Of a DNA stretch of 64,000 nt, positions 3,252-51,028 are shown piece by piece; position 1 is the stretch's first letter; each line of letters opens with the position of its first letter. Under the pieces are notes generated by a model. The model made no database searches. It was not told the DNA's origin and saw only the letters and a list, made by a program, of their open reading frames with translations. Source of the stretch: Escherichia coli (GTDB lineage: Bacteria; Pseudomonadota; Gammaproteobacteria; Enterobacterales; Enterobacteriaceae); NCBI RefSeq assembly GCF_003018235.1, contig NZ_CP027437.1. One strand, 5' to 3'. Position numbers and translations under genes: made by a program.

Positions 3252-3425
3252 CAAAATTACCTTTACATGAAAAATAGACACAAATGCTGTGTCGGTTACC
3301 AGTACACCAATTGTGGTACGCTTTGTCCAGTGCAACTTTACTAAAAAGTGATAAAAGTCGCGTTATTTTTGATGTTAATTATTTTACTCATTGATTTTAA
3401 AGAGTTTACTAAAATTTCATTTGTC

Positions 3426-16578: not shown

Positions 16579-16989
16579 ATGTCCAGACCAACTATCATCA
16601 TTAACGACCTGGATGCCGAACGCATCGATATTCTGCTGGAGCAACCCGCCTATGCTGGTTTGCCAATCGCCGACGCGTTAAACGCAGAGTTGGATCGCGC
16701 CCAAATGTGTTCGCCAGAAGAGATGCCACACGACGTGGTGACAATGAACAGCCGGGTTAAATTCCGCAATCTTAGCGATGGCGAAGTGCGTGTGCGCACG
16801 CTGGTGTATCCGGCAAAAATGACCGACAGCAATACTCAGCTTTCCGTTATGGCTCCGGTAGGTGCCGCACTGCTGGGGCTGCGCGTTGGCGATTCCATTC
16901 ACTGGGAACTTCCGGGCGGCGTTGCAACCCACCTTGAAGTACTGGAACTCGAATACCAGCCAGAAGCTGCTGGCGACTACCTGCTTTAA
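16579..16989 (+). CDS. rnk: Regulator of nucleoside diphosphate kinase Rnk (GreA/GreB-like)
   Basis: 136-aa [23 protein letters not shown]..., matches Rnk. Confidence 0.92.
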
Positions 16990-17024
16990 TCCCATCTGCA
17001 CAAGCGATAACTCGCTTTGCCCAG

Positions 17025-17049
17025 AGGATGCACTCGCATCCTCTTTCCG
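17025..17049 (+). terminator. Probable terminator after rnk
   Basis: gaggatgcactcgcatcctc hairpin followed by tttcc. Confidence 0.4.
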
Positions 17050-17131
17050 CTCAAATATCAACCAGATTTATCATTTTGCTCTTAAGCGCAGCATTCTAAT
17101 CTGAACTGGTTATTCATCTGCGGAACCTCAT

Positions 17132-17221
17132 ATGAGCGAAGCTCTCGGTATCACTGCATTTTATATATTCATAGCAGCAATTATTGTTGCTGCAGTGCTA
17201 TACCTTGAACAACGCTGGTAG
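17132..17221 (+). CDS. Hypothetical 29-aa single-transmembrane small protein (unverified)
   Basis: ATG..TAG ORF MSEALGITAFYIFIAAIIVAAVLYLEQRW with a 19-residue hydrophobic core flanked by charged residues; weak GGAA Shine-Dalgarno 6 nt upstream. Below the ORF-track size cutoff. Confidence 0.25.
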   Translation: MSEALGITAFYIFIAAIIVAAVLYLEQRW

Positions 17222-17344
17222 CGCCTGGTTTTATTTATTTTCCAGCTCAATAGCAAATTCAGATCAAATCAGCCTCGCAAATCATAGATTCATAACCAAT
17301 AATGTGCTGTTATGTATACATGCAAAAACAAGGAGAGAATGCTT

Positions 17345-17773
17345 ATGTACAAAACAATCATCATGCCAGTGGATGTTTTCGAAATGGAATTGAGCGACAA
17401 AGCGGTTCGCCACGCTGAATTCCTCGCCCAGGATGACGGAGTTATTCATCTACTTCACGTACTACCGGGGTCAGCCAGCCTGAGCCTGCACCGTTTTGCC
17501 GCTGATGTACGTCGTTTTGAAGAGCATCTGCAACATGAAGCAGAAGAACGTTTGCAAACGATGGTCAGCCACTTCACCATCGATCCTTCCCGCATTAAAC
17601 AACATGTCCGTTTTGGTAGCGTGCGGGATGAAGTCAATGAGTTGGCAGAAGAACTGGGGGCTGATGTTGTCGTTATCGGTTCGCGCAACCCATCGATTTC
17701 GACCCATCTGTTAGGTTCTAACGCCTCAAGCGTTATCCGCCACGCCAATCTGCCGGTGCTGGTTGTGCGTTAA
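17345..17773 (+). CDS. uspG: Universal stress protein G
   Basis: Trimmed to [21 protein letters not shown]... (142 aa); strong AAGGAG Shine-Dalgarno upstream. Confidence 0.92.
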
Positions 17774-21518: not shown

Positions 21519-22421
21519 ATGGCGAATCTTTATGACCTAAAAAAATTTGATCTGAATTTACTGGTCATATTTGAGTGCATTTATCAACACCTCAGCATTA
21601 GCAAAGCAGCAGAATCATTATATATAACGCCCTCTGCTGTTAGTCAGTCGTTACAACGTTTACGCGCGCAATTTAATGACCCGTTATTCATCCGCTCAGG
21701 GAAAGGTATCGCGCCGACTACGACAGGGTTAAACCTGCATCACCATCTTGAGAAGAATCTCCGAGGCCTTGAACAAACGATCAATATTGTTAATAAGTCT
21801 GAGCTAAAGAAAAATTTTATTATCTACGGTCCTCAGCTTATTTCTTGTACTAATAACAACATGCTAATCTGCTGTCTTAGACAAGATACTTCAATCGATA
21901 TAGAATGCCATGACATACTGCTTTCAGCTGAAAATGCCGAAGAACTGTTGGTTCAACGCAAAACTGACCTGGCAATTACACTACAACCAGTAATTAGCCG
22001 CTCTGTCATCTGCATGCCGTTACATACTATTCGCAATTCTCTTATATGTAGCAATAAACATCCTCGTATTACCGATACCAGTAACTATGAACAAATTATC
22101 GCCGAAGAATTCACCTTGTTGATATCTAAATCAGCAGGGATTGACGAAATTCAAATGGACATAGATGAACGTTTTATGAACCGTAAAGTTTCATTTCGCA
22201 GTTCTTCTTTGTTGACGATAATTAATAGTATTTCTGTTACTGACTTATTGGGCATTGTGCCCACCGAACTGTACGATTTACATCGTGATTTTTTGAAGTT
22301 ACAAGAGATAAAACTGGAACGACCACTTCCTGCGGTTAAACTTTATATTTCCTATAACAAGGCTTCGTTGAACAACCTTGTCTTCTCACGATTCATAGAT
22401 CGTTTAAATGATAGCTTCTGA
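21519..22421 (+). CDS. ybdO: LysR-family transcriptional regulator YbdO
   Basis: Trimmed to MANLYDLKKFDLNLLVIFECIYQH... (300 aa); N-terminal LysR HTH; gene is conspicuously AT-rich. Confidence 0.85.
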   Translation: MANLYDLKKFDLNLLVIFECIYQHLSISKAAESLYITPSAVSQSLQRLRAQFNDPLFIRSGKGIAPTTTGLNLHHHLEKNLRGLEQTINIVNKSELKKNFIIYGPQLISCTNNNMLICCLRQDTSIDIECHDILLSAENAEELLVQRKTDLAITLQPVISRSVICMPLHTIRNSLICSNKHPRITDTSNYEQIIAEEFTLLISKSAGIDEIQMDIDERFMNRKVSFRSSSLLTIINSISVTDLLGIVPTELYDLHRDFLKLQEIKLERPLPAVKLYISYNKASLNNLVFSRFIDRLNDSF

Positions 22422-26756: not shown

Positions 26757-26954
26757 TTAGCAGCAGCGCGCGCCGCCTTTTCCACCGTAGCGCGCGTCCT
26801 GCCGCTCACGGAAAAACTCCTCGTAGGTCATCGGCGTTTGATCGGGATGGTTAACCCGCATATGTTCGACATAGTTGTCGTAATCAGGCATACCAATCAT
26901 CAGTTTCGCCGCCTGACCTAAATATTTTCCGGCTTTTGCCAGTGAATCAAACAT
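26757..26954 (-). CDS. ybdD: Small protein YbdD (DUF466), cstA-associated
   Basis: 65-aa [35 protein letters not shown]... immediately downstream of cstA. Confidence 0.88.
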
Positions 26955-26973
26955 CTAAACCTCCGGTAATACA

Positions 26974-27000
26974 AATGCCCTCCTGAATTAAGAGGGCTTA
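26974..27000. terminator. Hairpin between convergent ybdH and ybdD
   Basis: gccctcctgaattaagagggc inverted repeat. Confidence 0.45.
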
Positions 27001-27066
27001 ATTGCTATCAACACGCTCGGGCTGAGAGTAAGGGGAACGCTCAGCACATCCCCCCTCACTCTGACT

Positions 27067-29039
27067 TTAGTGCGCGCCTTTCGCCTGCGCCACGATCTCT
27101 TCGACATTTTCCGGCATCGGCTCATATGGCGTTTCTTTCGCCGTTGGCTTCGGCTCTTTCAATGCCGCCAGTGCCGTCTTAATCGAGAACAGCGCCAGAA
27201 CCACCACGACCACCATAAAGAAGATGGTTAACCCGGCATCAAGACGGTTGTTGAATACCAGTTGCGCCAGCTGTGACTCAGTATACTGCGACGGAATATT
27301 GCCGCTGTCGATCATTGCCTGGAACTTATTAGCAATCGCCTGGAAGCCGACTTTCGCATCCGGGCTAAACGCTTTCTGCCAGCCTGCGGTCAGGGTACAA
27401 ATCAGCAGCCAGGCCGTTGGTACCAGCGCCACCCAGGCGTAACGTTGACGTTTCATTTTGAACAGCACCACAGCACAGAGCATCAGCGCCATCCCTGCCA
27501 GCATCTGGTTGGCAATACCAAACAGCGGCCACAAGGTGTTAATACCGCCCAGCGGATCGACCACACCCTGATGGAGGAAGTAGCCCCACGCCAGTACGCA
27601 CAGCGCCGTTGCCAGCAGGTTAGCAGGCAGTGAATCGGTCCGTTTCAGGCCCGGAGACACCACGCCCAGCAGATCCTGCAACATAAAGCGCGCAGCACGC
27701 GTACCTGCATCCACCGCCGTCAGAATAAACAGTGCTTCAAACAAAATGGCGAAGTGATACCAGAACGCCACATCCATCATGCCGCCCAGCGCGCCGTGCA
27801 GAATGTAGGCCATCCCCACCGCCAGCGTCGGCGCACCGCCCGCACGGGAAATGATCGACTGTTCACCCACTTCGCTGGCAATCTGGTTGAGCGTATCTGG
27901 TGTAATGCTAAATCCCCAGCTACTCACCACCTGCGCGGCAGAAGCAACCACATCCGCCGTACCTGCCGGAGCCAGCACCGCCATCGGGCTGTTCATAGCG
28001 AAGTACACACCCGGATCGATGATACAGGCGGAAACCAGCGCCATAATCGCTACGAAGGATTCCATTAACATCCCGCCGTAGCCGATAAAACACGCCTGCC
28101 CTTCGTTCGCCAGCATCTTCGGCGTGGTACCGGAAGAGATCAGCGCATGGAAGCCAGACACCGCGCCACAAGCGATGGTGATAAACAGGAACGGGAACAG
28201 GTTACCGGTCCATACCGGGCCTGTGCCATCGACAAATTTAGTTAGCGCAGGCATGGTCAGCGTCGGGCGCATAATCAAAATGCCTACCGCCAGACCGACG
28301 ATAGTCCCGATTTTCAGGAAGGTTGAGAGGTAGTCACGCGGAGCCAGCAGCAGCCACACCGGCAGCACCGCCGCCACAAAACCGTAACCCACCAGCATCC
28401 AGGTCAGCTGCACGCCGGTAAAGTCAAAGTACGGTGCCCAGGTCGGGCTTTCTGCCACCCAGCCGCCAGAGATAATGGCGAAAATCAGGAACACCAGACC
28501 AATCACCGACACTTCGCCAATACGCCCCGGACGCAGATAACGCAGGTAGATCCCCATAAACAGCGCCAGCGGAATGGTGAACGCAACGGTATACGTTCCC
28601 CACGGGCTATGGGTCAGGGCTTTCACCACGATCATCGCCAGCACGGCAAGGATAATGACCATGATCATAAAGCAGGCCACCAGCGCAATCACCCCGGCAG
28701 GTAACCCATTTGCGCCGCCAGCACCGGCCCCACCAGCGGGCCTGCTCCGGCAATGGCCGCAAAATGGTGACCGAACAGCACTTTTTTGTCCGTCGGCACA
28801 TAGTCCAGCCCGTCGTTATGGCGCACCGCTGGCGTCATACGCGTCGGGTCAACCGCCAGCACATTTTTGGCGATATACAGGCCATAAAAACGGTAAGCGA
28901 TCAGATAGATACAGACCGACGCCACCACAATCCACAGCGCGTTGATCTGTTCCCCACGATTTAAAGCAATGTATCCCAGAGCAAATGCTCCCATTACAGA
29001 GAGCACTGTCCAGACGAGGTATTTCCCTGATTTGTTCAT
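27067..29039 (-). pseudogene. cstA: Carbon-starvation peptide/pyruvate transporter CstA, interrupted by frameshift/internal deletion
   Basis: The CstA N-terminus (116 aa ending ...AAQMGYLPG) stops at a TGA at 28689-28691; the remainder (541 aa from VIALVACFMIMV...) resumes in another frame from 28692. The sum (657 aa) is about 44 aa short of the roughly 701 aa I recall for CstA. Confidence 0.7.
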
Positions 29040-29100
29040 AGTTGTTATCCGTGTGCGTGTCCATAGAGATGTTACATTTTGTTTCTATAACATCTTTGCG
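29040..29100 (-). promoter_or_regulatory. cstA 5' leader with GGA motifs (CsrA-type sites) and a 7-13-7 hairpin
   Basis: Minus-strand leader ...gatgttatagaaacaaaatgtaacatc...atGGAcacgcacacGGAtaacaacATG; cstA is a known CsrA target. Confidence 0.4.
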
Positions 29101-29159
29101 CAATTTAACAACACAGCAACCATGTAAATCGGAGTTGAAACCAATATTTAACTTAACAA

Positions 29160-29175
29160 TGTTAACTCGATCACT
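29160..29175 (-). promoter_or_regulatory. Putative CRP site in the cstA promoter
   Basis: TGTTA-N6-TCACT resembles TGTGA-N6-TCACA, about 120 bp upstream of the cstA ATG; cstA is known to be cAMP-CRP dependent. Confidence 0.3.
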
Positions 29176-29219
29176 CCGTTAACCGAGTTTTCCTGCAATC
29201 TCATTTAATTCTGTCGGGT

Positions 29220-30381
<1,162 letters not shown>

Positions 30382-49437: not shown

Positions 49438-49590
49438 CTACTTCTTCGGTTCGTAAGCGAGAACAGCCTTAAACTCAATATTACGTTCCTTCACCGTAAA
49501 CTCACACAGCGAGTCGCGGACCAGAAGCGTAAATCCCAGCACCGTTAAACACAGCACTATGACTGCCACAAGGGCATATTTCGTCAGCAT
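49438..49590 (-). CDS. Hok-family membrane toxin, copy 1 (in-frame Mok extension from the ATG at 49626)
   Basis: 50-aa [50 protein letters not shown]; GGAGG Shine-Dalgarno lies inside the upstream mok frame ([12 protein letters not shown]). Confidence 0.8.
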
Positions 49591-49624
49591 GTTTATATTG
49601 CCTCCATGCGAAGAAGGGACTACC

Positions 49625-49692
49625 ATCCGAGTTGTTGAGGTTCGGAGTGGCAGCCCCAGGATTGATAGAAATATCTCCTGGGGCTTCATCTT
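49625..49692 (+). ncRNA. Putative Sok-like antisense RNA, copy 1 (boundaries approximate)
   Basis: Plus-strand hairpin gccccagg-N16-cctggggc followed by ttcatcttt, antisense to the mok initiation region. Confidence 0.3.
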
Positions 49693-49940
49693 TCCAGATC
49701 TCAGAGTTAACCTGAAACCGGAAAGCTTCAGGCACCCGCAGCTATCTTACCTTTCCTCAACAAAATAGCTGTTTATTTATACAGCAAATCCTGTTTCGGA
49801 CTTCTGTTGGCAAAACTGATCATTGCCCTTAAAACGACATCGCCCGCAGCCATTGCTGACCGCGGGCGAAAGTGTAAAACAGGTGCCTTACCACCCTGAC
49901 CTGACAACCGGATATGCGGGGATTGCTCCCCGCACAACGG

Positions 49941-50093
49941 CTACTTCTTCGGTTCGTAAGCGAGAACAGCCCTGAACTCAATATTACGTTCGTTCACCGT
50001 AAACTCACACAGCGAGTCTCCGACCAGAAGCGTAAATCCCAGCACCGTTAAACACAGCACTATGACTGCCACAAGGGCATATTTCGTCAGCAT
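49941..50093 (-). CDS. Hok-family membrane toxin, copy 2 (Mok extension from the ATG at 50129)
   Basis: 50-aa [50 protein letters not shown]. Confidence 0.8.
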
Positions 50094-50127
50094 GTTTATA
50101 TTGCCTCCATGCGAAGAAGGGACTACC

Positions 50128-50196
50128 ATCCAAATTGTTCAGGTTTGGGTAGGTAGCCCCAGGGTTGATAGAAATATCGTCCTGGGGCTTCATCTT
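50128..50196 (+). ncRNA. Putative Sok-like antisense RNA, copy 2 (boundaries approximate)
   Basis: Conserved gccccagg...cctggggc hairpin plus U-tract. Confidence 0.3.
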
Positions 50197-50444
50197 TCCA
50201 GACCTCAGAGTTAACCTGAAACCGGAAAGCTTCAGGCACCCGCTGTTATCTTACCCTTCCTCAGCAAAATAGCTGTTTATTTATACAGTGAATCCTGTTT
50301 CGGACTTCTGTTGGCAAAACTGATCATTGCCCTTAAAACGACATCGCCCGCAGCCATTGCTGACCGCGGGCGAAAGTGTAAAACAGGTGCCTTACCACCC
50401 TGACCTGACAACCGGATATGCGGGGATTACTCCCCGCACAACGG

Positions 50445-50597
50445 CTACTTCTTCGGTTCGTAAGCGAGAACAGCCTTAAACTCAATATTACGTTCCTTCA
50501 CCGTAAACTCACACAGCGAGTCTCCGACCAGAAGCGTAAATCCCAGTACCGTCAAACACAGCACTATGACTGCCACAAGGGCATATTTCGTCAGCAT
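50445..50597 (-). CDS. hokE: Hok-family membrane toxin, copy 3 (matches the HokE sequence as I recall it; Mok extension from the ATG at 50633)
   Basis: 50-aa [50 protein letters not shown]. Confidence 0.8.
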
Positions 50598-50631
50598 GTT
50601 TATATTGCCTCCATGCGAAGAAGGGACTACC

Positions 50632-50700
50632 ATCCAAATTGTCTGGTTTGGAGTGGCAGCCCCAGGGTTGATAGAAATATCTCCTGGGGCTTCATCTTTC
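50632..50700 (+). ncRNA. Putative Sok-like antisense RNA, copy 3 (boundaries approximate)
   Basis: Conserved gccccagg...cctggggc hairpin plus U-tract. Confidence 0.3.
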
Positions 50701-51028
50701 CAGACCTCAGAGTAAACCTGAAACCGGAAAGCTTCAGGCACCCGCCGTTATCTTACCCTTCCTCAGCAAAATAGCTGTTTATTTATACAGTGAGTCCTGT
50801 TTCGGACTTCTCACTCCTCATTTGATCAACTGAAGCTGAACCCGTTTTTTTCTGCATGCCTCAATCGTCAAAATTCTTCGCCACCAGCCAGCTCTGCCAT
50901 AACTTGTCACATTGCAAAAGTAGCCAAATTGCTTCAGTCACCATCACCAAAAAAAAGAAACATTCCAGAACTTCCGCATCTCGCCCAGCCGCTCCGACTT
51001 CTATACTGAATAGAAAACGCCAACATAA

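Follow-up and report, generated by a model that had tools for sequence, protein, structure and literature searches.

A 133-bp deletion between 7-bp direct repeats splits cstA beside an intact ybdD in an Escherichia coli strain, very probably leaving a recent, strain-private pseudogene

The window, by which we mean the whole 64,000-nucleotide stretch of E. coli DNA that was analysed, shares with K-12 the gene order entH-cstA-ybdD-hcxA. The K-12 counterparts of the two central genes are the pyruvate/H+ symporter CstA (b0598, TC 2.A.114) and its small partner YbdD (b4512). In the window, cstA lies on the minus strand and is present in two pieces, and the surrounding ent-cstA-ybdD-hcxA region is otherwise normal for E. 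coli. The features of the locus are as follows.

26757..26954, minus strand: ybdD, intact, 65 aa, the small partner of CstA, with its own strong ribosome-binding site
26955..27066, minus strand: cstA-ybdD intergenic region, 112 bp, identical to that of E. coli TUM14771 (182 bp in K-12)
26997..26977, minus strand: terminator-like hairpin, GCCCTCTTAATTCAGGAGGGC and then a T-rich tail, just upstream of the ybdD ribosome-binding site
27067..28692, minus strand: cstA 3' fragment, codons 161-701 and the native stop, in a frame that differs from that of the 5' fragment
27341, minus strand: private L611Q missense change (CTG to CAG) in the 3' fragment
28689..28692, minus strand: GTGA overlap made by the deletion, in which the TGA of the 5' fragment lies over the GTG that opens the 3' frame
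28692..28698, minus strand: deletion junction, one surviving 7-bp GCCGGGG copy
28692..29039, minus strand: cstA 5' fragment, codons 1-116 (MNKSG...AAQMGYLPG), with the new TGA directly after it at 28691..28689
29040..29225, minus strand: cstA promoter and leader, 186 bp, matching K-12 at every position but the dinucleotide 29099-29100 (TA to CG, gene strand)

The original prediction held that cstA is split into two reading frames by an internal lesion, and on this the list of open reading frames, the positions matched in a family profile and tblastn all agree. The ORF listing and the raw sequence place codons 1-116 at 29039..28692, and the 116-aa ORF occupies 28689..29039 with its stop and has the C-terminus ...AAQMGYLPG. 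Codons 161-701 are in another frame that starts from the GTG at 28692..28690, overlapping the TGA of the 5' fragment; the resulting 541-aa ORF (27067..28692) reads (V/M)IALVACFMIMV... from this codon. Both the stop at 28689-28691 and the resumption at GTG 28692 had been predicted and were seen in the raw sequence, and the predicted total of 657 aa in two pieces against about 701 expected is likewise correct (116 + 541 aa compared to 701 aa for K-12 CstA, a length also given in PMC7730263). In the NCBIfam profile NF011590 (pyruvate/proton symporter CstA, 701 positions), an equivalog of the CstA family TC 2.A.114 with a cut-off of 1188 bits, the 5' fragment covers positions 1-116 with 255 bits and the 3' fragment positions 161-701 with 1206 bits, which is above the cut-off. 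The same two pieces were obtained by tblastn with K-12 CstA at 99-100% identity, the 5' fragment being 100% identical in amino acids to residues 1-116 and the 3' fragment differing from residues 161-701 at L611Q and D673E. Both fragments match the CstA equivalog in sequence. No single ORF of about 701 codons runs across the whole profile, since positions 117-160 are missing, the frames differ and a TGA stands between them. This pattern is not a product of chance, for a known gene is present as an orthologue of high identity with one defined lesion. Judged from its sequence, the cstA of the window is a pseudogene of the CstA family and no functional member of it.

The prediction had also described ybdD as intact and the cstA promoter and leader as normal, and both descriptions hold. 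YbdD consists of 65 aa and is 100% identical to K-12 YbdD by tblastn; its ORF follows 112 bp past the cstA stop, its Shine-Dalgarno duplex is at -10.2 kcal/mol, and the YbdD/YjiX domain (PF04328) is precomputed in an identical locus (L012). YbdD ends in ...GGARCC and gave a sub-threshold match to the NCBIfam 'KCU-star family selenoprotein' (70 bits, cut-off 85), which fits a YbdD/YjiX family that would be the cysteine-containing counterpart of the selenoprotein family. The 112-bp spacer before ybdD, unlike the 182-bp spacer of K-12 with its extra inserted blocks, is a form found in many non-K-12 strains, and the hairpin within it makes one ask how strains with this spacer allele transcribe ybdD. 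Upstream of cstA, the 186 bp differ from K-12 only in the dinucleotide at 29099-29100; a 66-mer around it has exact matches in 44 complete genomes, that of E. coli 042 among them, which makes the change a natural allele.

Alignment to intact alleles was used to define the ends of the lesion. Exactly 133 bp (44 codons plus one base; codons 117-160) are missing by blastn compared to K-12, TUM14771 and a third intact allele, L024, confirming the predicted loss of about 130 bp with a frame shift. With the allele of E. coli TUM14771 (L001), blastn returned two pieces with a reference span 133 bases longer. L024 (GCA_021342185.1, contig JAJTRK010000006.1), which was found through a common hcxA allele, encodes an intact 701-aa CstA. 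In K-12, TUM14771 and L024, the heptamer GCCGGGG occurs as two direct copies at CDS nt 342-348 and 475-481, exactly 133 nt apart, in the contexts CTG CCG GGG/ATG ATC and ACC GCC GGG G/TG AT (slash at the end of the repeat). All inspected intact alleles have GCCGGGG at both ends of the deleted block, whereas the window retains one copy. The window and L024 show no differences over CDS nt 1-348, that is over the entire 5' fragment, or over nt 481-1679. When 133 nt were removed in silico from L024, starting at any of nt 342-349, all eight equivalent deletions reproduced the window sequence exactly. The junction is clean, with no filler bases and no other damage nearby. Because 133 = 44x3+1, the deletion shifts the frame, and the junction reads CCG GGG TGA, an immediate stop.

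Spontaneous deletions between short direct repeats, arising by slipped misalignment, are a classical mutational class that was mapped in lacI. The cstA deletion shows the hallmarks of that class, namely flanking direct repeats (here perfect and 7 bp long), one retained copy and a clean junction, and it departs in nothing from what is usual there. A hairpin in the deleted DNA that could promote slippage was not found: the segment folds no better than shuffled sequences on either strand (z-scores 0.16 and 1.12), so that no stabilising hairpin is predicted. A single event would have removed the 133 bp between the GCCGGGG copies and left one of them, and the cause would most likely be misalignment of the short repeats at replication or another form of microhomology-mediated joining, which are indistinguishable because the repeat is just 7 bp. 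The lesion is an ordinary one of an already known kind, a well-known mutational mechanism acting in a well-known gene, and the loss in cstA could stand in a textbook as a clean case of deletion between direct repeats of 7 bp.

We considered whether the strain's cstA might be intact, with the gap or frameshift produced by read errors or assembly collapse. Artefactual truncation at the same cstA codon does occur. A cluster look-up (P0001) placed a 116-aa product identical to that of the window, ending in ...GYLPG, on 93 contigs. Among the ten places listed, two are the deletion allele (L003 and L012, the same contig of run SRR8930575), and in seven of the ten one G is lost, or an equivalent change has occurred, at the GGGG run (CTGCCGGG-ATGATC) while the rest of the gene is complete. 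These one-base lesions (L002, L004-L007, L009-L011) lie around locus position 3340-3351 and are followed by a second ORF of 585 aa. Most of the assemblies concerned have many further split genes (entE, entB, entA, hcxA), and their GGGG-run lesions are probably homopolymer errors unrelated to the allele of the window; the lesion before ATGATC looks like a recurrent homopolymer error beside a GATC site and not like biology. At the same GGGG site of cstA, the metagenome scaffold RAMP15-1_SAMN03418254_METAG-scaffold_120 from ENA (L008) has a 53-bp insertion at 3348-3400 made of two antisense cstA segments that match the plus strand of the window at 28546 and 28921, and either template switching or a chimeric assembly produced this insertion. 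The other assemblies thus share with the window the same predicted protein but reach it by loss of one G, and among the places listed the 133-bp deletion occurs only in the window and in the Logan assembly of SRR8930575. A 116-aa truncation of identical sequence can therefore arise for a different, probably artefactual reason, which should be kept in mind when it is met elsewhere.

A clean, repeat-bounded loss of 133 bp is far bigger than a homopolymer indel, and a unique 133-bp segment with 7-bp flanking repeats is not collapsed by assemblers. A one-base indel or read error was rejected as the cause in the window, where 133 bp are gone; the GGGG-to-GGG change was seen in the other assemblies only. 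Over 7.6 kb, junction included, the separately assembled Logan contig of SRA run SRR8930575 matches the window at 100% identity. The run is either a separate isolate or the deposited genome's own reads, and it rules out an assembler artefact, not a mutation in the sequenced culture. From dcuC to cusS, every further K-12 orthologue identified in the 64-kb window gave a single full-length tblastn match, and the assembly is therefore not one with frequent frameshifts. We regard an artefact as very unlikely. The prediction had named as outcomes against it a single continuous gene on re-sequencing, or two pieces that together cover CstA with a one-base indel; we found instead pieces that leave part of CstA uncovered, a loss larger than one base and a second assembly with the same junction.

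Taking the deletion as real, we asked what it removes from the protein. In the part lost, residues 117-160, a strongly hydrophobic stretch, MIWLLAGVVLAGAVQDFMVLFV, is followed by the charged loop STRRDGRSLGELVKEEMGPTAG. The Kyte-Doolittle profile peaks at 2.17 over residues 116-140, which marks a predicted transmembrane helix within the deleted part. CstA has been described as a secondary transporter of 18 helices (PMC7730263), and by hydropathy the cstA of the window does not encode the full set of 18 predicted transmembrane helices. No PDB relative on which the lost helix could be mapped was found by sequence. Of the predicted inactivation of cstA, the ORF-breaking lesion is seen directly, and loss of function is very likely because a hydrophobic transmembrane segment has been lost. 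Translation from the native start would end after residue 116, and the 116-aa product would be non-functional. The GTG of the 3' fragment has no Shine-Dalgarno match upstream (-3.1 kcal/mol, compared to -10.2 kcal/mol for ybdD), and the 3' fragment is probably untranslated or poorly translated; its 541-aa frame would be translatable solely through inefficient termination-reinitiation. A product re-initiated at the GTG would start beyond the first four predicted helices and probably could neither insert into the membrane nor function. A programmed ribosomal frameshift was also considered. Such recoding depends on all coding information being present, and no frameshift could restore CstA because 44 codons are physically missing, which rules it out.

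Another reading is that cstA is split and still functional. Ribosomes terminating at the TGA would re-initiate at the GTG, and the 116- and 541-aa products together, or the larger one alone, would transport or have gained a new role. The three-base overlap of stop and GTG has the geometry of natural translational coupling, and the 541-aa ORF is fully open and by itself exceeds the NCBIfam full-length cut-off (1206 vs 1188 bits). However, the 44 residues with their whole hydrophobic helix are in neither piece, one helix less would invert the topology of the following part, no Shine-Dalgarno sequence precedes the GTG, and an open downstream frame is expected anyway in a recent lesion. Moreover, no lineage among the complete E. 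coli genomes and JGI contigs searched has kept the arrangement. We consider a functional split extremely unlikely, and give as little credence to the specific form in which reinitiation at the GTGA yields a CstA core trimmed to 541 aa, accompanied by the 116-aa piece or not, that has some transport or regulatory activity beside intact YbdD. If true, the strain would have a natural transporter of the CstA family in split or trimmed form. Under the preferred reading, a simple pseudogene, ybdD would remain as an orphan without its partner, and polarity may lower its transcription, since some 1.6 kb of the cstA mRNA would go untranslated.

The distribution of the allele was examined with the 44-mer across the junction, GCGCAAATGGGTTACCTGCCGGGGTGATTGCGCTGGTGGCCTGC. 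By 44-nt blastn the junction was found in none of the 5,426 complete RefSeq E. coli genomes. A 201-bp megablast over the junction against the same genomes returned no record with at least 99% identity, and the 40 matches listed were all in two pieces. When JGI metagenome contigs were scanned for exact occurrences of a degenerate junction pattern, there were 0 matches. From its absence in these complete genomes and contigs, the lesion looks private to one strain. Close relatives with the same hcxA allele have a cstA of 701 aa. Compared with K-12, the surviving cstA codons carry 58 nt differences and only 2 aa differences (53 nt and both aa differences fall in the 3' fragment); compared with TUM14771, they carry 29 nt differences and 1 aa difference. 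This indicates that cstA was under purifying selection until recently, and the lesion itself looks recent on these comparisons. A 61-mer around the L611Q change had no exact match in the 5,426 complete E. coli genomes (best 60/61); L611Q may be the first, neutral substitution after inactivation or simply a private polymorphism. A full-text literature search for cstA pseudogenes in E. coli returned nothing relevant.

The locus is a mosaic in which the closest reference strain depends on the side of cstA that is compared. On the 5' side the identity is 99.2% for L004 and 98.1% for L021; on the 3' side it is 97.7% for L004 and 99.4% for L021. It could be supposed from this that the deletion arose not by slippage but on import of foreign E. 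coli DNA, through homology-facilitated illegitimate recombination with one microhomology end. For some references, a table of SNP density was indeed suggestive of a recombination breakpoint at the junction. L024, however, shows no difference from the window on either side (nt 1-348 and 481-1679), so there is no recombination breakpoint at the deletion, and the nearest switch of affinity is about 1.2 kb away. An origin by import is hardly credible. Taken together, we are highly confident that cstA is a real, strain-private and apparently recent pseudogene produced by one GCCGGGG-bounded 133-bp deletion, and that the CstA/YbdD uptake route is expected to be lost.

Several features elsewhere in the window also differ from K-12 or from the reference genomes. 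At 29100-54000 and 21519-22418 the window stands apart from the references: over the whole ent-fep region its identity to any complete RefSeq E. coli genome does not exceed 97.9%, and some proteins are unusually divergent from K-12 (CitR 88%, EntD 92%). The affinities to reference strains also shift along the window. By these comparisons, the strain is a mosaic without a close complete-genome relative in the RefSeq collection searched. Between entD and ybdK, three tandem hok/sok toxin-antitoxin units lie at 49441-50743, where K-12 has one hokE and an IS186. Three ORFs here resemble hokE, with products 94-98% identical in amino acids to K-12 HokE, and Rfam gives three sok matches. The units repeat with a period of about 503 bp and their copies are about 95-96% identical; Tandem Repeats Finder did not report the array because this period is just above its limit. 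Draft relatives have at least 2 hok/sok copies. In addition, two genes found between rnk and uspG in K-12, ybdR and yldA, are missing from the window, where rnk and uspG are only about 360 bp apart (16986-17345).

In K-12, CstA and YbdD together form a constitutive pyruvate importer, and deletion of cstA or ybdD gives 3-fluoropyruvate tolerance and lower pyruvate uptake (Hwang et al., PMC5847655). CstA transports pyruvate specifically, with moderate affinity and driven by protons, and growth on pyruvate fails only in a btsT cstA yhjX triple mutant (Gasperotti et al., PMC7730263). In the strain studied here, constitutive moderate-affinity pyruvate uptake through CstA/YbdD would be lost. A mild growth phenotype is expected because BtsT and YhjX can also import pyruvate; and because only the triple mutant fails to grow, growth on pyruvate would not reveal the loss of cstA, whereas 3-fluoropyruvate tolerance or uptake would. 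The finding has little import beyond correct annotation: the strain is best recorded as cstA-negative, with a single pseudogene in place of two genes. Its predicted defect is the absence of the CstA/YbdD route, whose loss in K-12 mutants means less pyruvate uptake and tolerance to 3-fluoropyruvate.
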